A stretch of 43,863 bases of DNA from a virus. Position numbers and translations under genes: made by a program. The DNA lies in UHGV virus genome UHGV-0209067, one strand, 5' to 3'. Of this stretch, positions 1,188 through 17,237 are shown in pieces (position 1 is the stretch's first letter; the number at the start of each line of letters is the position of its first letter). A model generated the notes under the pieces. That model was not told the DNA's origin. It did not search any database and saw nothing but the letters and a program-made list of their open reading frames with translations.

Positions 1188-1502
1188 TTATTTTGCTACC
1201 TCACCAGAGATGCGTTTCATTGCCTCTGTCACGACCTCAGCCGCTGCTGGGCGATCTCGACCTGGTTTAACGGCCACATCAGCAAGGTACTTAGCCAATA
1301 ACTGCGTTCTTTTTTTCTCTTCATCAAGCCGTTCACGTTCTTCTTTCCGCTTCGCGTAGTAGGTCTTAATGGTGAAATAAGCCGAGATCAGAGCGCCAAG
1401 GATAAATACATAATCTTGCAAACTCAGAACAGAAAAAAAACCAAGCAGCCCTGACCACCAGTACGGCATGTTATGTCCATCGGTTGGGTTCATACGTTGC
1501 AT
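1188..1502 (-). CDS. holin (class II / pinholin-like) with dual-start motif
   Basis: 104 aa with two TM segments near the N-terminus and a charged C-terminal tail. MQRMNPTDGHNM offers alternative Met starts (holin/antiholin). Immediately upstream of the SAR endolysin. Confidence 0.6.
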   Translation of the reverse strand: MQRMNPTDGHNMPYWWSGLLGFFSVLSLQDYVFILGALISAYFTIKTYYAKRKEERERLDEEKKRTQLLAKYLADVAVKPGRDRPAAAEVVTEAMKRISGEVAK

Positions 1503-1920
1503 ATCCGCACCTCCGTAATCGGGGCGCTGTGTGTTGTAAGGGATCAGGCTATCGGGCTGTATATGCTACGGGGCAATGTAGAAGATGGAACCCGGAGCCT
1601 GATATAGAGGCGGGCTCTGCGCAAGCGCCTGTCGGATTGGGTTATGAGCCGTCCGTCAGCGAGCCCTGAATATGTTGAAGCACCGGTAAATACCGAGGCT
1701 CGTTAATCGTTGCCGCTGTGAGTGTCGCGGCGCACTGTCTCTTTGTCGGGCTACTGATGCGTTAAACCGGGCGCCAGCCGTAACTAAGTGATGCTTTAAG
1801 CTTCCTCTCCCTCACTACGTCGCCATGGGAGCCCGACCAGATTAACGCTGTCGTCACGTTGCCAAAATATGGCATCCAATGCGGTCTTTCCGTTTAGCTA
1901 TTTCATTTTTCCATCCTCCA

Positions 1921-1948
1921 GAAACGACAAAACCCGCTTGATGGCGGG
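1921..1948 (-). terminator. tR'-like intrinsic terminator between the Q-dependent late promoter region and the holin
   Basis: Minus strand reads ACCCGCCATCAAGCGGGT followed by TTTGTCGTTT. Lies ~450 nt upstream of the holin and just downstream of the Q gene end, the classic lambdoid late-leader layout. Confidence 0.5.
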
Positions 1949-2000
1949 TTATTAATTTTTATCTATCGCTGCGGGTGTAGCTTCGCGAGCATAGCTGAAT

Positions 2001-2579
2001 TCAAGCAATCCCCGCGCAACTTTGCAACCGGAATCGATCAGCTTTTTTATCGAATACATCACACATCGGTAAGTACAGCATTGCTTCTGCCATCTGCAAC
2101 CAGACATCAATTCGGCTTTCGCAGGTACGTAGGCACCATTCCGGGTGACGGGTATTCAGTTCTCTTGCCATAGCCTTCTTACTCATACGATCCTTGTACC
2201 GATCAACTACTAATTTAAAAAGACGCTGATGACCTGTCCGGACCAATATTTCACCGATCACAGCATCCATTAAGAGGCCTTCTTCATCGGTACAGAATGC
2301 AAGGTTGCTTTTTTCTTTTCCGGAAAGCATGTCCAGAAAATATGACATCAGTTCACTGTGATCCAGACCCGATGATTTGAGATGCTTCAATACCTGTTGA
2401 ATGGCAGTTTTACTGACTTTTTTTGACGCGAGAAGGTTATTAAACATATGTCCACCAGACCCGGAGCCAATATATGACCATCGGCCCCACATACGAAGTT
2501 TTCCCTGAATCCAGACTGACTCGAGGGTGTTTAATCGCAGCATTTCACCACCCTTTCCTGTCGTTGATGGGTTAATCAT
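2001..2579 (-). CDS. late-gene antiterminator Q-like protein
   Basis: 192 aa. Lies immediately upstream of the late leader/terminator and lysis cassette and downstream of nin-like genes. WG..W/SG-rich N-terminal half resembles the Phage_antitermQ family found in Salmonella/E. coli lambdoid prophages. Confidence 0.65.
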   Translation of the reverse strand: MINPSTTGKGGEMLRLNTLESVWIQGKLRMWGRWSYIGSGSGGHMFNNLLASKKVSKTAIQQVLKHLKSSGLDHSELMSYFLDMLSGKEKSNLAFCTDEEGLLMDAVIGEILVRTGHQRLFKLVVDRYKDRMSKKAMARELNTRHPEWCLRTCESRIDVWLQMAEAMLYLPMCDVFDKKADRFRLQSCAGIA

Positions 2580-4248: not shown

Positions 4249-6224
4249 TACGCGGCCTCCCTGCTTACACATAATTCAGGCAAATTAGCCCTCACCAGTG
4301 CCTCTGCAAACGGTGGCGGAACAGCGTTGCCACAACGAGCTACCTGCTTGTCCTTCGCGTACTTCTTACCCCGATAGTCCTGGTCGATGATGTACCACTC
4401 AGGGAAGCCCTGCGCGCGGTAAAGTTCATGCGGTTGCAGCATGCGCATGCCAATATCAACGATGCGGTAAGTTATGCCATCAACTGTCACCAGTCCGTCG
4501 CAATCCTCGCCACAGTATTCCTGCAGGAATGCCAGCGTCTGCTGTGCGCGGTACTCGTCATACCCGTCAGCTGCCAATGTGGTTTTTACCTCCCCTACGT
4601 GCTGACCACCAGCGGTGATCGTTGGCATGGGTTCGTCTGTGCGCTGCCCGTCCCGGCATGTACCGCGCAACTTCACCAGGTGTGAGGCAACAACTGCATG
4701 GTGATCAACGGTGGTGACCGAGTGTGCTGGTTCGTCCAACCCGACGCCCGGCCCGGAGTAATTCCCGCCGTAATGCTTCGCCAGGAATGCGCTCACCGTC
4801 GCGAACTTATTGCCGCCAGCAGTAACGGTACCCAGCGGATTGTCCAATTGCAGCACGCGCGGTTCCTGCCCGGGGCGTTCGCCATATCCCATCTGAATCA
4901 ACGTCGGCGTTACCAGTTGCGATTTGCCGCCACCGCCCGCGGTGATAGTCGCGCTTGGCTCGTCGGCCCGGTGGCCGACGCTGGCCCCGAACTGGCGGGC
5001 TATCACTGGCGCAACAAGACATGCGCGGGATTGTTTCAGAATTGTGTGTGCAGGTTTATCCAGCGGGCGTGGTTTAGCCTGGTATTCACTACCACCATTA
5101 CCCGCCAGAAATGGTGTCAGCGCGGCCTCAACAATCCCGAGCGCATGCCCATTCCCGCCTGGGTGTTTTGACGTGCCAGCGGTTACCGTCGGTACCGGTT
5201 CGGTAACGGGCTGGCCGGTTGCACCAGTGCGAAACTTTGTCAGGTGAGGAACGGCTAACGCGTAGCCGTGGGTTTTGGTAATGGTTTGCAAAGGCTCGCC
5301 CAACGCCTGACCACGGAAACAGTCGTAGCTCGTTTTGGTGCTGGTGTGATTGCATTTCACGATGAACGGCGACGCACTGTCGATAACAAAGCGCTGTATG
5401 CCGCGCGCGATCCGCTTCAGGGTATTTTCTGCCAGCTGTTTTTTGCGGTCGAATATCGACGGCGCCGGAATTGTCCAGTCTATACACTCAGCAGCCGTGC
5501 GCCACGGCGCCAGTCTGCCCGACTGAACCGCCGCAGATTTAGGATCCCCATGCGTTGGTTCCGGCCATACAATAGGCTTCCCATCACGGCGCATAACCAT
5601 GAAGAAACGCTTTCTGATTGTCGGTGCGCCGTAGTCACAGGCGCGCAGTTCGCGATACTCGACTACATAGCCCAGGCCTTTTACCAGCCGCGCGGCGTCT
5701 TCGCTATCAAGCGAAATATTCAAAAACTCGCAGCATTCCTCCAGCGCCGGATGGTTCGCCGGGATGCCGGTTGTCAGCATGCCAATAAACGCTTCAAAAG
5801 TTTCGCCCGCGCGGGCTGGGTCAGGTCGCATTTCTCCAGCCAGTAACGGCCCCCACGTTTTAAACTCTTCGACGTTCTCCAGTTTCATTACCCGCGGCTC
5901 AACATCCAGCCCCCAGCGTAATACTACCCAGGCCAGTCCGCGGATCGCTTTCTCAACGGGTTTAGCGCCTTTAGCTTTAGAAAAGTGGCGGCAATCTGGA
6001 GAAAACCACGCCAGCGCCACCGGACGTCCTGCGGTAGCTACCTTTGGTCGAACCTCATACACAGACTCGCAGTAGTGCAACGTATCAGGGTGGTTCGTTG
6101 TATGCATCGCCACGGCGTTCTCGTCGTGGTTAATAGCAATATCAACGCTGCGACCGATCGCCATTTCAATACCGGTTGACGCACCGCCACCACCGGCAAA
6201 ATTATCAACGATGATTTCTCTCAC
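4248..6224 (-). CDS. DNA (cytosine-5) methyltransferase
   Basis: Motif I IVDNFAGGGGASTG (FxGxG), ENV motif (LENVEEF), motif VIII-like TIRKRFFMV, long variable TRD. ORF track gives 4248..6299. A GTG at 6224 overlaps the upstream small-ORF stop (GTGA), suggesting the coupled start. Confidence 0.7.
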   Translation of the reverse strand: MREIIVDNFAGGGGASTGIEMAIGRSVDIAINHDENAVAMHTTNHPDTLHYCESVYEVRPKVATAGRPVALAWFSPDCRHFSKAKGAKPVEKAIRGLAWVVLRWGLDVEPRVMKLENVEEFKTWGPLLAGEMRPDPARAGETFEAFIGMLTTGIPANHPALEECCEFLNISLDSEDAARLVKGLGYVVEYRELRACDYGAPTIRKRFFMVMRRDGKPIVWPEPTHGDPKSAAVQSGRLAPWRTAAECIDWTIPAPSIFDRKKQLAENTLKRIARGIQRFVIDSASPFIVKCNHTSTKTSYDCFRGQALGEPLQTITKTHGYALAVPHLTKFRTGATGQPVTEPVPTVTAGTSKHPGGNGHALGIVEAALTPFLAGNGGSEYQAKPRPLDKPAHTILKQSRACLVAPVIARQFGASVGHRADEPSATITAGGGGKSQLVTPTLIQMGYGERPGQEPRVLQLDNPLGTVTAGGNKFATVSAFLAKHYGGNYSGPGVGLDEPAHSVTTVDHHAVVASHLVKLRGTCRDGQRTDEPMPTITAGGQHVGEVKTTLAADGYDEYRAQQTLAFLQEYCGEDCDGLVTVDGITYRIVDIGMRMLQPHELYRAQGFPEWYIIDQDYRGKKYAKDKQVARCGNAVPPPFAEALVRANLPELCVSREAA

Positions 6225-8148: not shown

Positions 8149-8829
8149 TTAAGCCCTCATGTTTTTCTCTGAGTGAACGTAGAAACGTGGATCAACGCTT
8201 TTCAGCGTGAAGTGTGTAACGGGCATATCGTCATGCCGTTCGATGCCAACAAAGTTCGACATGCAAAGCGCAAAGACGCGTTTCTGGAGCTGATCCAGGG
8301 TAATTTTGATGTCCGGGTAATATTTTTTAATCGATGACATAATCCCCTGATATGAGAGCGTTTTACCCTTCATAATCGCCACGAGGTATTCCGCCGGCAG
8401 TTCGCTGGATTTTTGGGGTAATTGGGATTCAGTAGGATTCTCAATGGGTTTTATGGTATCCAGCAGCAAACGACAGCGGCTGGTAATACCTACCCTATAG
8501 CCCGTTTTTTTGTCGTAATTCTCTTTGCTTCCGGAAGTCCATACAGTTGCCGTTTCGCGGAGTTTTACGGTCTTCTCTCCACCTGAATAAATAACGGTTC
8601 CGGTATGCGTCTTACTGAAACACCGTGGGTTGGTTTCAACAGGTTTTGATTTTTTATTTTTTGGGGCCGCGCGAGCAGTTAATCCCGGAACAGGAACCGG
8701 ACGCGGGCAAGGTACATAAACCGAACGGCTGCGAGCCCTGGCACCTGCGTTCATCCGCCAGATGATTACGTTCGTCCAGTCACAGGCATCGTCAACTGTC
8801 GCTACTTTAGGATAAATTAAATCGGTCAT
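8149..8829 (-). CDS. hypothetical phage protein; start set at the conserved GAGGAAAGACCAATG initiation motif
   Basis: ORF track 8149..8853. The minus strand at 8827-8841 reads GAGGAAAGACCAATG, the same 15-mer that precedes four plus-strand starts, so MTDLIYPK at 8829 is the likely start. Confidence 0.5.
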   Translation of the reverse strand: MTDLIYPKVATVDDACDWTNVIIWRMNAGARARSRSVYVPCPRPVPVPGLTARAAPKNKKSKPVETNPRCFSKTHTGTVIYSGGEKTVKLRETATVWTSGSKENYDKKTGYRVGITSRCRLLLDTIKPIENPTESQLPQKSSELPAEYLVAIMKGKTLSYQGIMSSIKKYYPDIKITLDQLQKRVFALCMSNFVGIERHDDMPVTHFTLKSVDPRFYVHSEKNMRA

Positions 8830-8867
8830 TGGTCTTTCCTCATTGTATTTCACGCTGGTCAGGCGTT

Positions 8868-10256
8868 TTAAAATGCGTCGGTGTTGTACTTCTCTGCATA
8901 CTTACGGTGCGTTTTTCTGGGTTTTGCTGCCTCCAGTTGAATCCGTGTTTTTTCTTTGCCAATGTGCTGGTCGATCGGCAGAAAGTGACCGTTTTTAAAC
9001 TCCTGGTAAACTACGGTACCAGCAGCTGCAAAGCGGCATTTGCCGAGGATGACCTCAGCCACACCAGCAGCCGGGCTTTCAGGGTTATAAACTTCATCTC
9101 TGTACAGAAACAGAATGCTGTCAGCATCCTGCTCAATAGAGCCTGAATCACGCAGGTCTGACATTACCGGACGGCGCTGCGCCGCCGGGCGCGCATCGAC
9201 GGCGCGGGAGAGCTGACTCAGTGCAAAGGTTGGCGTGTGCAGGCGCATAGCCATGGTTTTAAGATTTCGGGAAATATGCGCTACAGCGAGATCGTTACGC
9301 TCTGCTTTTGGTTTTTTAATCAGTCCGAGATAGTCGACCATAATCATCGCCAGATGCGGATGACGCCGTTTGTGTGTTTCGGCAATGGCGCGAATTTGTT
9401 CAACCGTAAGGTCGGTTGCATCCACGATCCAGATATCGCGATCCGTAAGCTCACCTATCGCAGCGGTTAATCGTGCCCAGTCCTCATCGTACATATCCTG
9501 TGGATTACGCAGACGGGAAACAGACAGATTCCCGGCACCAGCCAGTGAGCGTTCAACAATCTGAGCAGCGGCCATTTCCATGCTGAAAATTAGCGCGCCT
9601 CCGCCTTTAGCGGTTACGCCTTCCACAACAGTAAGAGCAAATTCGGTTTTACCCATACCTGGTCGACCAGCAACGACAATCAGATCCTGCGGGTTAATAC
9701 CTCCTGTAGCATTATCGAGATCTACAATCCCGGTCAGAAGGTTACGCGTGGATTCATCGCCTTCCATGCGTTTCTGTACGGTGTCCATGTAGGCGGGCAA
9801 CAGCTCGTTAATGTGTACCGGTTGGACGTCGCCGCTTTCAGCAGTCATATCCAGCAGCTGCGCCACAGCCTTTTCCACAACCTGATCACGTTGTTCCTGG
9901 TTGGCAGCATTGCGGATGCCGTCGGCGCCATCCTGCAAAAGTTTCGCCAACGCACGGCTACGCCATGCTTTAACCATCTTCCCTGCATACCCTTTGAGAT
10001 TCGGAATCGTTGCTGGTATGCGGGAAATTTCCGACAAATCAGCCAGGCTTGAACCGCCCAACGCCTCACTGATGAAAAGCATGTCGATCATGCCGTTAGT
10101 CAGTGCCTGTTTTTTTATTTCGCTGAATGCGCGGCGATAAAAACCAATGCTGAATGATTCCTCTGGCGTGGATGCGATCACGTCAAATGCGTCAGGTGTA
10201 GCGCCGCCATTCAACAACCCTGCCAGCACACACGCTTCCAGTTCCTGCGGGGTCAT
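8868..10256 (-). CDS. replicative DNA helicase, DnaB family (phage P-like)
   Basis: 462 aa. Walker A GRPGMGKT, Walker B IMVDYLGL, DnaB C-terminal RecA-like domain with SQLSR / RDSGSIEQDAD motifs. Directly downstream of the O-like initiator. Confidence 0.85.
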   Translation of the reverse strand: MTPQELEACVLAGLLNGGATPDAFDVIASTPEESFSIGFYRRAFSEIKKQALTNGMIDMLFISEALGGSSLADLSEISRIPATIPNLKGYAGKMVKAWRSRALAKLLQDGADGIRNAANQEQRDQVVEKAVAQLLDMTAESGDVQPVHINELLPAYMDTVQKRMEGDESTRNLLTGIVDLDNATGGINPQDLIVVAGRPGMGKTEFALTVVEGVTAKGGGALIFSMEMAAAQIVERSLAGAGNLSVSRLRNPQDMYDEDWARLTAAIGELTDRDIWIVDATDLTVEQIRAIAETHKRRHPHLAMIMVDYLGLIKKPKAERNDLAVAHISRNLKTMAMRLHTPTFALSQLSRAVDARPAAQRRPVMSDLRDSGSIEQDADSILFLYRDEVYNPESPAAGVAEVILGKCRFAAAGTVVYQEFKNGHFLPIDQHIGKEKTRIQLEAAKPRKTHRKYAEKYNTDAF

Positions 10257-11236
10257 AGCGAACCTTCCCGGGTATTACGTAAAGTTTCTGGTTTCATCAA
10301 ATAATCAAAGCTGGCGCGCCATCCACCGTTAGATCCGAAATAAAAATCAGGGGCATCAGCGCGGAATTTTTCGAAGTAACCCAGGAATGCTCCCGTAGTT
10401 TTATTTTTCATATGGGCCGCCAGGCGAATAATCATCCTGCGGCGATCTGTATCCAGTTCAGCAGCAGGCAGTGTGTCAGCGAATATCTCGTTGTAGCCGT
10501 TCATGACAGCATCCGGATCAATATCAGCCTCCGTAGTGGCCCATGCTTCGGCATCTGCGAGATAACCATCAAAGCGATTTACACGGCAGATATTGGCTGG
10601 TTTAGGTAAGCCAGAACCACGGCGACGCCATGTCGCCAGAACCCAACGAATAACTAATTGCAGCTCAGCCAGTGTGTATGCTTCCCGCGTTTGTGTCGGC
10701 GTAAGCATGAGAACGAACGGCTTAACATCACGGCAACGGGTACCGGTTTGTTCGTTATAGAATTCCAGGGCTTTTTTAGCGTCAGCAAGGATCCATTCGT
10801 CGCCCTCCCCCTTCTGGGGGTTAGGGGGATCATTAGGTTCATTGACTGGTTCAAAAGAGTGACTGGTTCTGGTGCCACCACATGGCATAGGGGGTGTGTT
10901 TTCTAACGGCATACCTGTGATTTTTGATGGCACAGGGGCTGTGCTTTTTGGTGGCACAGGGTTATCAAGATTCAGGTAATACACATTCGATGTATTTCCC
11001 TTACCATTGTTAATACCCATACGATTTTCTTTTGTTAAAACGCCCATGCCAATAAGCGCGTCAATATGCGTACGAACAGCACTCCTGCTGCATTCGCAAT
11101 GATCAGCAATGTGCTGATAAGATGGCCAGCATTCACCATTATCATTGGCGTTATCAGCAAGTTTAATCAGCACCAGTTTACGGATTGGGTTTCCGGTTTT
11201 TATTGCCATAGCCCGGGCCATTAGGGTCATGCTCAT
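10253..11236 (-). CDS. replication initiator, lambda O-like (N-terminal HTH + conserved phage C-terminal domain)
   Basis: 327 aa. N-terminal winged-helix LADNANDNGECWPSYQHIADHCECSRSAVRTHIDALIGMGVL, typical of HTH_36 phage replication proteins. Iteron-like repeats inside the linker coding region. Immediately upstream of the DnaB-like helicase. Confidence 0.7.
   Translation of the reverse strand: MSMTLMARAMAIKTGNPIRKLVLIKLADNANDNGECWPSYQHIADHCECSRSAVRTHIDALIGMGVLTKENRMGINNGKGNTSNVYYLNLDNPVPPKSTAPVPSKITGMPLENTPPMPCGGTRTSHSFEPVNEPNDPPNPQKGEGDEWILADAKKALEFYNEQTGTRCRDVKPFVLMLTPTQTREAYTLAELQLVIRWVLATWRRRGSGLPKPANICRVNRFDGYLADAEAWATTEADIDPDAVMNGYNEIFADTLPAAELDTDRRRMIIRLAAHMKNKTTGAFLGYFEKFRADAPDFYFGSNGGWRASFDYLMKPETLRNTREGSL
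10871..10961. repeat. iteron-like repeats (putative ori) inside the O-like gene
   Basis: TGGCA(T/C)AGGGG occurs three times directly (10884, 10928, 10952) plus an inverted GGTGCCACCA at 10871, followed by an AT-rich stretch. Embedded in the inter-domain linker coding region, as lambda ori is in O. Confidence 0.45.
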
Positions 11237-11238
11237 AG

Positions 11239-11484
11239 TCAGATCCCCAGCAGTTCAGCCAGTTCACGACAGGCTATTTCGTAGTCTTTTGGTGTGAGAA
11301 AAACGCACGTCTCGATCATCTCAGCTTTGCGTTTCTCATAAATTTCCCATTTTTTAGCGGACAGGCGTTCTTCAAATATTCCCCGTACGTCATGCGCACA
11401 GGATGGCTCGCCATTTAAACGCCAGCCGTTCCGCCAGGTGATGCGGTCAGTTGATGTCTGCATATTGGTCTTTCCTCGATACAA
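11239..11484 (-). CDS. hypothetical phage protein
   Basis: 81 aa ORF between the YdaT-like and O-like genes. No recognisable domain. Confidence 0.35.
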   Translation of the reverse strand: MYRGKTNMQTSTDRITWRNGWRLNGEPSCAHDVRGIFEERLSAKKWEIYEKRKAEMIETCVFLTPKDYEIACRELAELLGI

Positions 11485-11485
11485 G

Positions 11486-11932
11486 TTAAACGCTGGTCAG
11501 GCGCTGTGTTTCCTGTATGGCTTGTAGTGCCTGTGCTATCCGCTGTGGTCGATCTCTGGCATCAAGCAGCAAGGCAATAATCGCCGCGGCAAAATCACGA
11601 ATCGCGATGCAAATTAACTGCTGAGTGGTCATCCCCAGCTGTGCATATCGTTCCGCAGGCAATGCAGCCTCCATCGCCATGGCCAGCGCTTTAGTTTTGA
11701 TTCTTGCCGCTTTCGTCTCACCACGTAGCCAGCGAAAAATCTGCTGCCGGTTGTTGTTGATTGCCCGCCAGTCAGCATTACCTTTTGAATCCTCCATCGG
11801 GTGCAGTTTTACGCAGCTGGTATTGCCGCCCATTCGAAACCACATGCGAGTGATCTCAATAGCAACATGTTCCTGCCCACGCTCAGCAGCCCAGTTGAAG
11901 ATTTCTCTTTTCAGTTCGTCGAGGTTTTCCAC
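11486..11932 (-). CDS. YdaT-like protein (CII-analogous regulator of Rac-type prophages)
   Basis: 148 aa. The WLRGETK motif and overall pattern resemble E. coli Rac YdaT. Encoded directly after the Cro-like gene, as ydaS-ydaT. Confidence 0.55.
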   Translation of the reverse strand: MENLDELKREIFNWAAERGQEHVAIEITRMWFRMGGNTSCVKLHPMEDSKGNADWRAINNNRQQIFRWLRGETKAARIKTKALAMAMEAALPAERYAQLGMTTQQLICIAIRDFAAAIIALLLDARDRPQRIAQALQAIQETQRLTSV

Positions 11933-11996
11933 TTCGTCGCGTCTCCTGTCGCTGAAAACCTGATTAAGCGTAATCAGATTTCAAATACGCCCTTTG

Positions 11997-12200
11997 TTAA
12001 GCTGCGTTATCAGTCTTTGAAATGTCTTGGTACTCGCATGGATCGTAGACGAGCTCACCAGAGGTCATAAGGGCTAGACGAGCAGCCCTCTTTTCGGGGA
12101 TGTGTACTCCCCAGCGAGAAACTGCGGGTTGAGATACGCCCAATGCCTTTGCCAATTTGGCCTTACTGCCAAAATAATTTATTGCATCTTTAGTAAGCAC
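11997..12200 (-). CDS. Cro-like HTH protein (YdaS-like); start at GTG with GGAGG RBS
   Basis: HTH FGSKAKLAKALGVSQPAVSRW. ORF track 11997..12260 begins with a TTG. An in-frame GTG at 12200 is preceded by GGAGG with 5-nt spacing, giving a 67-aa Cro-sized protein divergent from the repressor gene. Confidence 0.6.
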   Translation of the reverse strand: MLTKDAINYFGSKAKLAKALGVSQPAVSRWGVHIPEKRAARLALMTSGELVYDPCEYQDISKTDNAA

Positions 12201-12279
12201 ATACACCTCCAAGGTATTAACGTTTGTTTGGAAACTACAACTTAACATAAGGTAAGTCAAATTAATTTACATTAACCCT
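12201..12279. promoter_or_regulatory. immunity-region divergent promoter/operator interval (pR-like and leaderless pRM-like)
   Basis: Minus strand has TTGACT-17 nt-TAGTTT reading toward cro. Plus strand has TACATT 6 nt before the repressor ATG with no SD (leaderless, as for lambda cI). The 9-mer CAACTTAAC here (12237) recurs at 12717 next to the pL-like promoter. Confidence 0.45.
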
Positions 12280-12681
12280 ATGAAGAACATCGAACTGAAC
12301 GACCGTATCCGCAGCAGAAGAACACAATTAGATATGTCACAGCAAAAACTCGCAGATGCTGTGAAGGTTTCGCACGTCACTATCTTTAAATGGGAAAGTG
12401 GTGAAACGCAGCCCCGTGGCAAGAATCTATTCGCATTAAGTAAAGTCCTGAAGTGTTCCCCTACGTGGCTACTTTATGGAGATGATGATCAAACTCCATT
12501 ACCCCCTTCTGAAATTCCCACAGAGTTAGATGAGCGCCAGCAAAAGCTGCTTGAGCTTTTCGATTCCCTTCCTGAGTCAGAAAAAGACCGGCATTTGACC
12601 GAATTAGAGCAAAAGGTTGATGACTTCAACGCTCTCTTCGAAGAACTATTAGCTGCCAGAAAAAAATCACAAAAAAAATAA
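12280..12681 (+). CDS. cI-like repressor, XRE-family HTH without a peptidase S24 domain (RacR-like, non-autocleavable)
   Basis: 133 aa. HTH QQKLADAVKVSHVTIFKWESG. Acidic C-terminal dimerisation-like region with no Ala-Gly/Ser-Lys LexA-type cleavage module. Divergent from the Cro-like gene. Confidence 0.75.
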   Translation: MKNIELNDRIRSRRTQLDMSQQKLADAVKVSHVTIFKWESGETQPRGKNLFALSKVLKCSPTWLLYGDDDQTPLPPSEIPTELDERQQKLLELFDSLPESEKDRHLTELEQKVDDFNALFEELLAARKKSQKK

Positions 12682-12744
12682 ATAAAACTTTCAGTAGGTT
12701 ATAAGAAACCACATAGCAACTTAACTTTTTTTAAGTAAAAACCA

Positions 12745-12773
12745 TTGACCAACAACTTACCTTTGATTAAGCT
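12745..12773 (+). promoter_or_regulatory. pL-like promoter (TTGACC-17-TAAGCT) for the early-left operon
   Basis: -35 TTGACC at 12745 and -10 TAAGCT at 12768 with 17-bp spacing, preceded by the CAACTTAAC operator-like 9-mer. Followed by a ~600-nt ORF-free leader. Confidence 0.4.
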
Positions 12774-13337
12774 TTATCTCATCAACGACGCACTAACCAC
12801 GCGGCAGTTGTTCAGAAAAACGTTCTGACAGTCTGGAAAGACAGGCAAAGAATTCTGCGGGGCGCCGCCAGTACGCTGACATGCGGGAAAGACCGCACAG
12901 AATTCGATTCGTTGCAGTGGTGGAAGTAGAGAGCAATGGGCGCGTAACACCACACAAGCCCCCTGTCACGGCAGTGAACGCGGTTTCGCTCAGTATCCCG
13001 CGCATAGAACGCCCCGTGAGGCTTAAAGAGCCGCCTGCTCCCCGTTAACGGAGCACCACAATCAAAGAGCGCGGGCTTTAAAAACCATAGTGGCCAACGT
13101 CTGTATTTAGGGAATCCCAATCCCGACGTGTAACTGGGCGCGGCTCGCTCTTTTTGATTGTGGTGAATTGCAGCCGCTTCGACGGCAACCAGAAGATAAG
13201 CATCTGGCGCCACATTCATATATAGCCATTGCTGTGTGTAGTCTTTGCCCAGTCCCTACGATGGGCTCCTTTTTTACACAGTAACTATTTTGTGACCCTT
13301 CGGTGAAAACCGAAGCCCTCGAAGAGAGGGAAGCGGC

Positions 13338-13434
13338 GAGGAAAGACCAAAGAGCCTGACCTGCTCTGACCCCGGGAAAGACCGGGAGGAAAGACCAATG
13401 GGCATGACCAGCCCTGACTGCCGGGAAAGACCGG
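13338..13434 (+). repeat. tandem ~48-bp direct repeat (2 units) carrying GAGGAAAGACCAA and GGGAAAGACCGG sub-motifs
   Basis: Unit 1 13338-13385 and unit 2 13386-13434 are alignable. Preceded by two adjacent stem-loops (13298-13330). A third partial copy sits at 13532. Confidence 0.5.
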
Positions 13435-13667
13435 CAAACTTTAGACGTAAAAAAGCCCACCTGAGTGGGCTGATTTACCCCAGCGGAGACCAATCCGCCA
13501 GGAAGGTGCCACAGGGGACCAACCCTGTAGCGAGGAAAGACCAATGCAGGACAGAGCCAACACTGATCGGCTCTGAGTATACATCACTAAGGAGCCGCTA
13601 TGGAAGCGCTTGCCATACCAGTAAAGCTGTACATTCACTACCATACCCAAACGTTTTCTTCGGATAA
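13398..13667 (+). CDS. possible small basic Pro/Arg-rich protein (uncertain; N-like antiterminator?)
   Basis: 89 aa ORF beginning exactly at a GAGGAAAGACCAATG motif. Low-complexity and basic. Overlaps the next gene out of frame. Could be non-coding leader. Confidence 0.2.
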   Translation: MGMTSPDCRERPANFRRKKAHLSGLIYPSGDQSARKVPQGTNPVARKDQCRTEPTLIGSEYTSLRSRYGSACHTSKAVHSLPYPNVFFG

Positions 13668-13923
13668 ATACATCGTCGCCACCTGTGACATGTCACGCAA
13701 CTTTCCGGACACCTACGTTTTGTTGGAAACCCGTGAAATTACCCTTGATATAAACCACCCTGAGCCATTCGACATCATTGCTCTGCAGGTCGACCAGCTG
13801 CGCGGCCAGAAAGAAACGATTGCGGCGGAAGCACAACGTCAAATTGACTGTGTCGACGACAAAATTCAGCAACTGCTTTGCATTGATCACACCCCTGTTC
13901 AGGAAAGCGATATCCCATTTTGA
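13600..13923 (+). CDS. hypothetical early protein
   Basis: 107 aa ORF with good RBS (AAGGAG, 7 nt). First convincing gene of the early-left operon. Confidence 0.5.
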   Translation: MEALAIPVKLYIHYHTQTFSSDKYIVATCDMSRNFPDTYVLLETREITLDINHPEPFDIIALQVDQLRGQKETIAAEAQRQIDCVDDKIQQLLCIDHTPVQESDIPF

Positions 13924-13968
13924 TCAGCCGGCGCCAGACCAGCGCCAGTAACCAAAGAGGAAAGACCA

Positions 13969-16242
13969 ATGACCATCTACAACGGCTTATTTGAGCCAAA
14001 AAAATCAGCGGTTAAAGATTGCGGGGCCGTTCAGCTGGCGATCGCAATTGATGCGCCAAACAAAAAAGTGGCAGAAAGCATTATGACCGGCAAACTCTGG
14101 GAAGCCTACCCAGCCAACGGTGACAACTATTTCAAACCCAAGTTATGGGAACATGCTGAAGGTCTGCCGTTGCCGGCTGTTGGTAAGTTCGATGAACAAT
14201 TTGCCCTGGCACACACATTCGACGGGGAAAAATGGGTCATCAACGAACAGGAGACCAACGTTTCAAACCTGCCAGCCAGTAACGAGATTATCGATCTGGC
14301 AAAGCTACCATCCCGGGAACGCTTCGCGGCCGTCCTTATGTTCAGCGATTCTCCCATCGATGGAGTTCTTTACTCTCAGGTGCTGGATTATCTCGATAAT
14401 CTTGAAAATAACGATGAATCCTTTGATGAGGATGATCGGGTTAATCTCAATATTCTCCACGCGCTGCACAATAACGAACCCGTGCAACATATGCATGTTG
14501 AAGGGCTGAATAATCTCATTCAGGCCATTTACGCAAACTTTGAAGATCAAACACCGGGTAAGGCTGCGATTTCACAATTTATTAAACGCTGGCTGGAAAA
14601 CCCAAGTAAGCGTGATGAGATGGTGCCAAACAAAACATCATCACTTAGTACCTGCGTTAAAAATGACAATGTCGTTGTGGCACCACAACGTGGTTATAAA
14701 CACACCTACGCAACACTGGATCAGGAAATTGCCGTTGCCCTACTTCCCATCGCTCCTGATGCGCCTGTGTTATCAGGAAATCTCCGTGATGCGGAAAAAA
14801 TGATTTCTGATGACCGTGAGGATTTCAAACGTTGGTCAGCGGCATTGCGTACTACCGAGCAGATTCTCAAATATGACCGTCCAAGTATCTTTGGGGTTAT
14901 TCAGAATGTCCCATCTAAAGATACATACCATTTCCCTGAGTCACTGCGACGCCATATTGATTCATGGCTCGCTGAACATGGTCAACTCGAATGTGCCGAA
15001 ACGGATGCAGAAAGAACCAGCAAGCAGCTTGCGGCAGAACGCGGCGAATATGTGGAAGGTATCAGCGACCCTAATGATCCTAAATGGGTTAAAACCGATA
15101 CCCAACCACAGGATTCAACCCACGATGACGGAACACTTTCGCGTGATGGAACTATGCCTGAAACAGCCTCAAATGAAGGTGAAAAACCGGAAGTGACAGA
15201 ACAGGAAAAAGTTACAGAAGACCAAGCGGAACAAGCTCGTGAAACGCTAAACAATATGGGTTACGGAGTATATGCGACCAGCCAGGAGACTGCTGACCAA
15301 CCGAATGAAAATCTGGGCGATAAAGTGAAAGCTCTCGTTCAGGATGTGGATCAGCTCGTCGAGCGTGTTAAGCGTGAAGAATCGCTTCCTCAGGCGTCTG
15401 AACTGGTTAAGAGTATTAATGAAATGCAGGCTGGCGAAAACGACAACCTGGAGTTGTGGAAAGAAGTTTTCAAAACAGATGAGCGCTTTACCTCCGCATT
15501 CTCTGTGAATGGCGGCGGAACCTCAATCAATGGCACCTACATGACCATGATCGCTACCCGCGAATTTGGTCCGAAAGGTATCGGCTGGGGTGTGGATATT
15601 CTTGAAGAACGCTTTGACGATGGCGCGCCAATTACTCGCACAGTCAAAGGGGTTGACGGTAATAACACATGGGAACTCATCCCGGACGGTATCGGTGGCG
15701 TCCTTACAGAAAAACACCACGTTATCAAAATCAGTCTTTGGTACATCCGGAATGGTGCGCGCGGTGAAGAGATTTCATTCGGGTGTACCCCGTATATTTA
15801 CGGCAGCAAATACGGCCCAATTTGCGATGGTGAAGCGACAAAAAAATCACTGACTGACGCAACCAAGAAAGCATTGTCTGCACTCGGTTTCTGCGCGGAT
15901 ATTTTCATGGGCCTGTACGATAACCCGGAATATCGCCAGAGAAATAAAGCTGAATTTGCACTCAAAAACGCCAGCGAAAACGCAGAGGATGCAGCCCGCG
16001 TACGTCAGGAACTGGACGATAAACTGACCCGAGTAGCAAATACTCTTGCATCAGCTGTGTCTGAGAACGAGATCAATAAGGTTTATTCTTCGATTGCCCG
16101 TGAAGCAGAGGTGCATCGCAAGGACGCAGAAGCGAAGGGAGACACGCAGCATGCGCGCTATTTAAGTGGGCGCCTGCGTCGCCTGACAACCATCAAAGAT
16201 GAACGTATCGCTGAACTGAACAAAGCCCAGGAGAATGCATAA
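13969..16242 (+). CDS. Rad52/Sak-family single-strand annealing protein fused to a ~500-aa N-terminal domain of unknown function
   Basis: C-terminal GCTPYIYGSKYGPICDGEATKKSLTDATKKALSALGFCADIF matches the Rad52/Sak signature (KSKA...TDA.KRAL..FG). The N-terminal ~450 aa plus an acidic linker have no recognisable motif. Starts at a GAGGAAAGACCAATG motif. Confidence 0.65.
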   Translation: MTIYNGLFEPKKSAVKDCGAVQLAIAIDAPNKKVAESIMTGKLWEAYPANGDNYFKPKLWEHAEGLPLPAVGKFDEQFALAHTFDGEKWVINEQETNVSNLPASNEIIDLAKLPSRERFAAVLMFSDSPIDGVLYSQVLDYLDNLENNDESFDEDDRVNLNILHALHNNEPVQHMHVEGLNNLIQAIYANFEDQTPGKAAISQFIKRWLENPSKRDEMVPNKTSSLSTCVKNDNVVVAPQRGYKHTYATLDQEIAVALLPIAPDAPVLSGNLRDAEKMISDDREDFKRWSAALRTTEQILKYDRPSIFGVIQNVPSKDTYHFPESLRRHIDSWLAEHGQLECAETDAERTSKQLAAERGEYVEGISDPNDPKWVKTDTQPQDSTHDDGTLSRDGTMPETASNEGEKPEVTEQEKVTEDQAEQARETLNNMGYGVYATSQETADQPNENLGDKVKALVQDVDQLVERVKREESLPQASELVKSINEMQAGENDNLELWKEVFKTDERFTSAFSVNGGGTSINGTYMTMIATREFGPKGIGWGVDILEERFDDGAPITRTVKGVDGNNTWELIPDGIGGVLTEKHHVIKISLWYIRNGARGEEISFGCTPYIYGSKYGPICDGEATKKSLTDATKKALSALGFCADIFMGLYDNPEYRQRNKAEFALKNASENAEDAARVRQELDDKLTRVANTLASAVSENEINKVYSSIAREAEVHRKDAEAKGDTQHARYLSGRLRRLTTIKDERIAELNKAQENA

Positions 16243-16796
16243 TGACTACTGCAATCGCGTTAGCTGCTGACTACACCAACCTTCTGCAATTGCTGGAAAG
16301 CTCTGATGAACTAACTCCGGAGATGATCACCGATACACTGGAAGGAATTGAAGGTGAACTGGCGGATAAGCTGGATGCCATCATGGTCATCGCGCGTAAT
16401 AACCTCGGCCATGCCAAAACATGCGATGAAGAAATAAAGCGCCTGGCTGAGCGTAAAAAGTCTTTCGAAAATAAAGATAAAACGCTTCGTAAATATATTC
16501 TGTCTTGCCTGCTTGCTGCCAATCTGGACAAGCTCAAGACCCCTAAGAATAGCTTTACTGCCCGTAAAGGTAGCGTCAGCGTTGTTATCGACAACGAAAA
16601 GCTATTACCGGATGAGTTGGTTACTGTTCAGACGATTGTCGCTCCGGACAAAAAAGCCATCAAAGAAGCGATCGAGGCTGCGGAAGCTGCCGCAGCACAA
16701 ATCACTGCCGATGGTGGTGAAGTGCCAGCAGAACTGTTAAATCCGGTACCGGGTGCCCACCTTGAGATCGGCGAACGCTCACTACAGGTACGATAA
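16242..16796 (+). CDS. Sipho_Gp157-family protein (partner of Sak/Rad52 recombination modules)
   Basis: 184 aa. Pattern LLQLLESSDELTPEMITDTLEGIEGEL...SVSVVIDNEKLLPDELVTV...PDKKAIKEAIEAAEAA is typical of Gp157. TAATG coupling to the SSAP gene. Confidence 0.6.
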   Translation: MTTAIALAADYTNLLQLLESSDELTPEMITDTLEGIEGELADKLDAIMVIARNNLGHAKTCDEEIKRLAERKKSFENKDKTLRKYILSCLLAANLDKLKTPKNSFTARKGSVSVVIDNEKLLPDELVTVQTIVAPDKKAIKEAIEAAEAAAAQITADGGEVPAELLNPVPGAHLEIGERSLQVR

Positions 16797-16798
16797 CT

Positions 16799-16981
16799 AT
16801 GCTGAAACTATCCCTCAAACGTGGCGATGCGGTTCACGTAGTATTTTCAGATGGCAGTAACGGCATTATTGAAGCTCGTAGCCGTTGCGAGTTGGGAATG
16901 CACCTGCCGAAAAGCGTTAAAGTGACGCGAGAGAAAGGCGCATTCCTACCCGAAAACCTGATTAAGCGTAATCAGAAATAA
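16799..16981 (+). CDS. small hypothetical protein
   Basis: 60 aa ORF whose 3' end contains the 25-bp repeat also found at 11954. Confidence 0.4.
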   Translation: MLKLSLKRGDAVHVVFSDGSNGIIEARSRCELGMHLPKSVKVTREKGAFLPENLIKRNQK

Positions 16982-17030
16982 AACCACACTATCGCTAGCA
17001 TTGTGGCCTCACCCAATACAGGAGGCTGCA

Positions 17031-17237
17031 ATGCTGCGATGGCAACCCAGAGCTACTCTGCTCACAGATTTCGATATAAAGATTGGCCGGTTATCGGCAA
17101 GCGTACGAAAGAAGACTCTGACCCAGTCAGACATCGAACGCGCATGCAGTGATGCTGATGATGCCGTGTACCGGATGATGAGGAAAGACCAACATGGCCA
17201 GAGAAAACGACCTGCTAACAGACGCAGAACTGATTGA
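17031..17237 (+). CDS. hypothetical protein (start at AGGAGG-preceded ATG)
   Basis: ORF track 17001..17237. An ATG at 17031 is preceded by AGGAGG with 6-nt spacing. Overlaps the xis-like start. Confidence 0.35.
   Translation: MLRWQPRATLLTDFDIKIGRLSASVRKKTLTQSDIERACSDADDAVYRMMRKDQHGQRKRPANRRRTD

Follow-up and report, generated by a model that had tools for sequence, protein, structure and literature searches.

The viral genome UHGV-0209067, a stretch of 43,863 nucleotides (nt) that was analysed at its full length and is referred to below as the window, is that of a lambdoid-type temperate phage of Enterobacterales, in whose early region one short motif recurs at ribosome-binding sites, in an untranslated leader and within a predicted small-RNA gene read from the opposite strand. 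From conservation, structure and complementarity, it can be deduced that the motif most likely marks the binding sites of this previously unannotated small antisense RNA, and that the RNA probably controls four early blocks (replication, post-replication, recombination and excision) together.

Early region and its repeated motif

The early region lies on both sides of the cro gene and a cI-like repressor gene (Table 1). The leftward genes are the cII-like gene and those for a 74-amino-acid (aa) protein, an O-like protein, DnaB and a 226-aa protein, while rightward there are about 900 nt with no conserved open reading frame (ORF), followed by genes for a 107-aa protein, a 757-aa exonuclease (PHROG 2489), a Gp157-family protein (its PHROG label is Mu Gam-like), a 60-aa protein, Xis and Int. 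As the repressor lacks an S24 peptidase domain, induction may not use RecA-mediated self-cleavage. From its sequence and its surroundings, the promoter TTGACC-17-TAAGCT is taken as the pL equivalent; the operator-like repeat family to which its overlapping repeat belongs (D3; 12238, 12717 and 12753) is common to this promoter and the cI/cro intergenic region. A strong terminator at 13251-13275 stands between the pL-like promoter and the early genes. An ORF of 135 aa on the minus strand (12812-13219) was discarded as unconserved.

Table 1 Coordinates of the small-RNA gene, its putative targets and other features of the early region in the window
Feature	Position	Strand	Remarks
Predicted small-RNA gene, ~125 nt	13449-13574	-	5' end within ~5 nt; 3' end is the terminator U-tract
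-10 box TATACT	13576-13581	-	TATACT or TATAAT in all homologues
Seed CAUUGGUCUUUCCUC	13532-13546	-	Opposite strand of the motif copy at 13532
Hairpin 1	13508-13531	-	9-bp stem, loop UUGGUC; compensatory changes at 8 of 9 pairs, 100% of cells paired
Hairpin 2	13478-13502	-	Loop UUGGUC; many G.U pairs that are A.C mismatches on the plus strand
Intrinsic terminator AGCCCAC UCAG GUGGGCU UUUUUU	13449-13471	-	Relatives keep the U-tract only on the minus strand
Putative target, ribosome-binding site of 226-aa gene (first after DnaB)	8827-8841	-	Cassette conserved at this gene in relatives
Putative target, ribosome-binding site of 74-aa gene	11463-11477	-	GAGGAAAGACCAATATG; heads 74-aa/O-like/DnaB block; best trans duplex, -33 kcal/mol
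Putative target, ribosome-binding site of 757-aa exonuclease gene	13957-13971	+	Followed by Gp157-family and 60-aa genes; motif present in ~60 loci sampled by exonuclease homology
Putative target, ribosome-binding site of xis	17180-17196	+	Heads xis-int block; no upstream hairpin
Hairpin CGC-CUGACCA-GCG	8853-8865(-), 11491-11503(-), 13932-13944(+)	as given	~14 nt upstream of the motif; 3 of 4 target classes, stems vary
Two tandem 48-nt units	13338-13436	+	Repeat family D2; each with linear motif copy, GACC-loop hairpin and GAAAGA-loop hairpin
Two 5-bp GAAAGA-loop hairpins	12831-12846, 12882-12897	+	~50 and ~100 nt downstream of the pL-like promoter
RprA-like 3' half with terminator	13176-13276	+	Convergent with the small RNA; conserved in relatives
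pL-like promoter TTGACC-17-TAAGCT	12747-12775	+	Overlaps operator-like repeat
cI-like repressor gene, 133 aa	12280-12681	+	Helix-turn-helix domain
cro	~11997-12194	-

A motif search across the whole window returned the exact 15-mer GAGGAAAGACCAATG at the four places where an earlier sequence-only reading had listed it, namely 8827-8841(-), 13386(+), 13532(+) and 13957(+), together with copies carrying one mismatch at 11463(-) and 13338(+) and the inserted-base variant GAGGAAAGACCAACATG / CCAACATG at 17180. The inserted-base copy and the ATG-less copy at 13338 had both been recorded by that reading and are genuine. Seven matches with at most two mismatches were found to the 15-mer, where 0.12 would be expected. 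For the core 9-mer GGAAAGACC, the earlier expectation of about 0.3 occurrences was recomputed as 0.33, against which the window holds 12 copies, a number reached in none of 100 shuffles. The sequence-only reading had counted nine, missing those at 11463-11477(-), 1883(-) and 27352(-), and among the copies that it had listed, all of them real, the one placed at 13423 actually lies at 13424. All ten core copies within 8.8-17.2 kb are co-oriented with local transcription, those left of the cro/cI pair being on the minus strand and those right of it on the plus strand. The unit that is conserved among relatives is GAGGAAAGACC rather than the 15-mer, and its distance to the start codon varies there from 0 to 5 nt.

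The two outlying core copies, at 1883(-) and 27352(-), were rejected as parts of the system for want of a counterpart, the equivalent places in the complete genome of phage BUCT709 having no motif while its early-region pattern is otherwise alike. The copy at 1883 is held by an ORF-free 500-nt stretch between genes for 192-aa and 104-aa proteins (1502-2001(-)), which includes an intrinsic terminator around 1950-1925 and resembles the leader of a late operon.

Predicted small-RNA gene and its distribution

About 40 related viral contigs were aligned for a first comparison, and 26 distinct homologues in minus-strand orientation make up the alignment (A1) from which a covariance model (R1) was built. 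This model scores 132 bits at the window gene and finds one strong copy per phage locus that has one. The 310 nt at 13290-13600 fold far better than shuffled sequence (z = -7.9), and the two hairpins of the predicted RNA are paired in 98.7% of cells in A1, with compensatory changes at 11 of the 18 pairs; none of 500 shuffles matches this and slide controls come nowhere close. Read as a minus-strand RNA the hairpins contain 78 G.U against 1 A.C cells, and the pairing is 98.7% as compared with 81.8% for a plus-strand RNA, which places the RNA on the minus strand. Both hairpin loops contain an invariant TGGTC, loop 2 being invariant as TTGGTC.

The sequence TGGTCTTTCCT is invariant in all 26 distinct homologues, the small RNA carries the invariant UGGUCUUUCCU, and the motif copy at 13532, which is the seed viewed from the other strand, is invariant as GAGGAAAGACCA among the related contigs while the adjoining ATG is unconserved. 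For the UCUUUCC part of the seed, no pairing is predicted. One subgroup of homologues has an extended -10 element, TGATATAAT. Thus, at the level of sequence, the features of a base-pairing small RNA with a terminator are present, i.e., a promoter, structure on one strand only, the terminator itself and a conserved single-stranded seed; computational support for the gene is strong, and the RNA is presumably expressed.

In the 5' part of the small RNA (13557-13566(-)) lies a near-invariant GAUCAG, which includes a Dam GATC site and can pair with any of three UUGGUC elements; its six pairs with the seed copy are kept in 26 of 26 homologues. From the modelled folds, this pairing might mask the seed.

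The seed is also complementary to a stretch of ribosomal RNA, since GGAAAGACC is identical to 23S rRNA 2056-2064, which is the A2058 macrolide/Erm site and part of the TLR13 ligand ACGGAAAGACCCCGU. The identity is probably a coincidence.

Distribution was assessed in samples drawn by homology of neighbouring proteins, with no reference to the motif. The small RNA is found in every such locus with upstream DNA available, comprising about 60 loci reached through the exonuclease (56-98% identity) and 80 plus 34 new ones reached through the 107-aa protein, all of the latter two sets carrying GGTCTTTCC(T); 230 of 354 loci carry the small RNA. The host genera include Escherichia, Citrobacter, Raoultella, Pseudescherichia, Serratia and Rosenbergiella. 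Two lambdoid early regions that lack this RNA, those of Gifsy-2 and of a Klebsiella phage with part of the O-like gene in common, have zero or one motif copy. Close prophages occur in 6 of 5426 complete Escherichia coli genomes, where the 930-nt gap is unannotated, PGAP listing nothing in the equivalent gap; E. coli strain 44 (NZ_CM132959) has a region that is 98.5% identical. The closest deposited phages are BUCT708 and BUCT709 (L001/L356; OM816835, OM816834), which are listed as "Stenotrophomonas" phages; their G+C content is about 50% and the prophage family is otherwise found in Enterobacterales, and the recorded host may be wrong.

Putative targets, leader copies and competing explanations

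The motif copies would fall into three types: (i) the RNA gene itself, at 13532; (ii) four ribosome-binding sites that are complementary to the exposed seed UGGUCUUUCCUC, each of them heading a gene block; and (iii) copies that are linear or presented in the loops of GAAAGA hairpins, in the long untranslated leader of the leftward-type operon under repressor control. The sequence-only reading had taken all full copies for one shared initiation cassette in which each ATG opens an ORF. This is true for the four ribosome-binding sites (copies at 8827, 11463, 13957 and 17180), whose ATGs start genes, and fails for the cluster at 13338-13546, where one copy is simply the opposite strand of the RNA gene and the remaining ones, several of them forming hairpin loops, belong to the untranslated leader. 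A frame of only 10 codons follows the ATG after 13532, which is unconserved and is replaced in relatives by CCAACGA, CCAATAA, CCATCTC or CCAGCCG, and an 89-aa ORF after 13386 (at 13398) was set aside as unconserved, the frame ranging in relatives from none to 52 codons.

In the phage family, the cassette at the type (ii) sites consists of a hairpin GCGC-CUGACCA-GCGC, a spacer of 10-16 nt, the unit GAGGAAAGACC and an ATG 0-5 nt later. The earlier reading had proposed checking whether the motif tracks gene starts in homologues, and it does so across relatives, preceding the same four families, namely the gene after DnaB, the 70-74-aa gene after cII, the exonuclease gene and xis (here with no hairpin), although the flanks differ. 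In the window, each of the four target genes is the first in a series of genes that overlap or abut closely, and translational coupling may operate within these series.

Complementarity between the seed and each of the four ribosome-binding sites extends over 13-15 nt, with duplex energies of -27 to -33 kcal/mol as against a background mean of -12.3 (sd 4.1). Where the seed ends in CCUC, 206 of the 213 distinct trans targets have GAGG; where it ends in CCUA, the targets have UAGG in 8, AAGG in 5 and GAGG in 15 cases; and where it ends in CCUU, they have UAGG in 2 cases and AAGG in 1. At the exonuclease site the only core variant is GACU, seen in 3 of about 60 loci, with the pairing kept as G.U. 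Taken together, the comparison of seeds and targets favours base pairing, and its support for this mode of action is moderate.

These results also bear on the proposal that the small RNA would be no more than cis-antisense to the leader it overlaps, in the style of IsrB of Salmonella prophages, lambda OOP or P22 sar, and that the copies at ribosome-binding sites would be a strong initiation cassette shared by descent or copying, with no regulation in trans. Such an RNA would account for the perfect complementarity to the leader immediately preceding the 107-aa gene and has an equally placed parallel in Gifsy-2 IsrB, which has no motif network, and GAGGA is in itself a good Shine-Dalgarno sequence. 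Yet 11 bases, beyond what a Shine-Dalgarno sequence needs, are invariant at four unrelated genes while flanks and spacing diverge across relatives of 50-98% protein identity; the same 11 bases form the invariant seed; the first base of the target is relaxed or changed exactly where the last base of the seed changes; and the neighbouring 107-aa gene uses AAGGAG instead of the motif. We consider action in cis only to be improbable.

A second contact may be made between loops, the UGGUC of the small-RNA loops being the complement of the GACCA loops that precede three of the targets. The arrangement would allow this contact, as hairpin 1 follows the seed on its 3' side and the target hairpin is placed on the 5' side of the motif. 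The small-RNA loops (UUGGUC or GUGGUU) were examined for covariation with the CUGACCA loops, and the target loops are nearly constant. Recognition loops of antisense RNAs reportedly carry a YUNR U-turn motif, a description credited to Franch et al. in 1999, and UUGG in the UUGGUC loops fits this pattern.

Upstream of the 107-aa gene, the stems of the hairpins at 12831 and 12882 covary and hold G.U against A.C cells in a ratio of 66:1 on the plus strand, which shows that they fold on this strand. In relatives they form a compact element downstream of the repressor-controlled promoter, in which two GAAAGA hairpins are followed by the RprA-like 3' half. The last ~50 nt of the latter differ hardly at all from the seed and terminator of RprA in enterobacteria, and the stretch at 13176-13276 scores 48.3 bits (E = 1e-4) against Rfam RF00034, below the threshold of 70, only the 3' half (seed plus terminator) being alike. 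No report of a phage-borne RprA-like RNA was found in the literature. The RprA-like element (12783-12900 and 13176-13276) is split in the window by about 280 nt (12900-13180) that are missing from many relatives; the insert has a 23-nt inverted repeat (13054-13076 / 13143-13165) and no conserved ORF.

The motif could also be read as the operator of an RNA-binding protein, either a T4 RegA-like repressor or an N-like antiterminator acting on boxB-like hairpins, the minus-strand RNA then being unrelated or merely carrying one more copy of the motif. With 5-bp stems and a purine-rich loop (GAAAGA, where lambda has GAAAA or GAAGA), the N5-GAAAGA-N5' hairpins are shaped like lambda boxB, and the first two stand at roughly the nutL position, just downstream of the pL-like promoter; lambda nutL lies roughly that far from pL. 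The terminator ahead of the early genes means that some mechanism of read-through would be needed, and the association of seed and target could reflect a protein of changed specificity. Unlike the lambda N/nut system, however, the window has a loop of six bases, no boxA, no N-like gene and no site after cro. The 930-nt gap holds neither a conserved ORF nor an arginine-rich N-like candidate, family scans of the neighbouring proteins named no RNA-binding family, and no GAAAGA hairpin lies between cro and the cII-like gene. Furthermore, the linear copies at the ribosome-binding sites are not hairpins, and a protein site on the plus strand leaves unexplained an invariant seed in the single-stranded part of a minus-strand RNA with covarying flanking hairpins. 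A protein operator appears unlikely to us on these grounds.

The sequence-only reading had suggested, besides initiation, a recombination linker at mosaic boundaries, i.e., that the cassette of hairpin and motif would promote the exchange of modules at gene boundaries. In this mosaic phage family the cassettes do coincide exactly with gene junctions, but the only visible mosaic joint, that of phages L227-L229 and L239, falls inside the exonuclease gene and away from the motif copies. Orientation with transcription points to a role at the RNA level, and hairpin-displayed copies, seed and covariation would all be left unexplained, making this explanation very improbable. The mosaic phages share the right-hand module with the window, from the C-terminal part of the exonuclease to int and including the xis cassette, and have a different immunity/replication module with no small RNA. 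They are the only phages found with homologous genes and no small RNA; being recent mosaics that have kept the xis cassette, they are uninformative.

The explanation that we prefer, and hold to be reasonably probable from the sequence comparisons, is that the small RNA pairs with its sites and represses translation, and that the leader copies serve as decoys. At the type (ii) sites the RNA would pair with the Shine-Dalgarno sequence and the start codon, so that ribosome binding would be blocked and replication, recombination and excision would be silenced for as long as the early promoters are inactive. Upon derepression, transcription starting at the pL-like promoter would run into the small-RNA promoter, and the leader RNA, which holds the perfect complement along with as many as six other sites, would remove the small RNA by titration or destruction, so that all four blocks would be freed at once. 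The sequence-only reading had named a translational regulator, possibly an antisense RNA containing CAUUGGUCUUUCCUC, as the common factor, and a minus-strand small-RNA gene with exactly this sequence lies inside the cluster; the antisense idea was right in outline, and the earlier interpretation as a whole is partly supported.

Several observations weigh against the repression and decoy model. A good -35 box is absent from the small-RNA promoter, and the UUGGUC part of the seed pairs with the 5' GAUCAG in the majority of the predicted folds. A few unrelated sites reach duplex energies of -28 to -29.5 kcal/mol. No relative with a different seed core was found among the loci reached, and because the core never varies, the only base-pair association is that at the terminal position. 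This association between the last base of the seed and the first base of the target rests on few independent lineages; about half of the targets in the CCUA lineages keep GAGG, xis always doing so, and copying between motif copies or a co-evolving protein could explain it as well. In the tandem leader units, about 4 events in the GAAAGA hairpins favour the minus strand against 1 for the plus strand, while the GACC hairpins hint at the opposite, and the acting strand is ambiguous.

Relation to known phage RNAs and possible biological meaning

Typically, small phage RNAs of the c4 (P1/P7) and CI (P4) type expose short sequences that pair with complementary sites, one of which lies over a ribosome-binding site, and with extra copies in the leader they provide a layer of immunity at the RNA level. 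They are processed from the target strand and control one operon, unlike the window RNA, which has its own predicted promoter on the opposite strand and whose sites are spread over four separate gene blocks to the left and right of the immunity region. P22 sar and lambda OOP, of lambdoid phages, are short antisense RNAs from the early region, each ending in a terminator and overlapping an mRNA; both are known to act only on the transcript that they overlap, and we know of no repeated trans target motif for either. The c4 antisense RNA is summarised in PMC12197685. With Rfam, no family was found in the whole window at gathering thresholds; c4 in particular had no match at its gathering threshold there, nor at E up to 10 in 12600-14000. 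The CsrB/Rsm-type family rsmX scored 16.5 bits in the window and 28.7 bits in the divergent relative L329 against a threshold of 56, and the weak matches to SorX, rsmX and others were dismissed as chance-level.

The RNAs IsrB-1 and IsrB-2 of the Salmonella prophages Gifsy-2 and Gifsy-1 were experimentally detected in 2008 (PMC2330248), and the corresponding Rfam family RF01386 is named "isrB Hfq binding RNA"; no function of IsrB is given in the literature found, including PMC2330248. The placement is alike, IsrB lying downstream of a repressor gene, upstream of a recombination exonuclease module and against the early operon (PMC2330248). Gifsy-2 IsrB (5993-6080(+)) lies between STM1010 and exoVIII, both on the minus strand, and directly upstream of exoVIII; the window RNA is flanked by cI on one side and by the 107-aa and exonuclease genes on the other, on the strand opposite to theirs, and is upstream of the 107-aa gene that precedes the exonuclease gene. 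The 3' halves are also alike, since IsrB has a hairpin with an CUUUGGUC loop, to be compared with hairpin 2 of the window RNA, followed by a GCCCACUUCGGUGGGC terminator. At 13450-13535(-) the window scores 16.3 bits, below the RF01386 gathering threshold of 35, whereas L329 passes with 36.1. In the reciprocal search, nhmmer and R1 both miss Gifsy-2 IsrB at E up to 10. IsrB lacks the UGGUCUUUCC seed, and Gifsy-2 has zero copies of GGAAAGACC. The window RNA would be at most a distant IsrB relative with an acquired seed and target set. By analogy, its closest known relative would be Gifsy IsrB, and in function it would most resemble c4 of P1/P7 and CI of P4.

A more far-reaching version of the repression and decoy model is offered tentatively, as a possibility that is less likely than not: one RNA with an anti-Shine-Dalgarno seed would gate all four early blocks as an RNA immunity layer over CI/Cro, and it would be switched off by the pL-like transcript, which includes the RprA-like RNA with its two GAAAGA hairpins and the tandem-decoy leader. 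Literature searches on the motif, the seed, phage RprA-like RNAs and anti-Shine-Dalgarno phage RNAs found no description of this system.

Overall, if the pairing holds, one small RNA would control four early blocks through a ribosome-binding-site sequence that is fixed at each of them, and built-in decoys in the induced transcript would lift this control. The lysis-lysogeny switch would thereby gain an RNA layer in this widespread group of prophages of Enterobacterales, whose targets and seed are defined to the base. The system would also provide a first testable lead on the function of IsrB-type RNAs.

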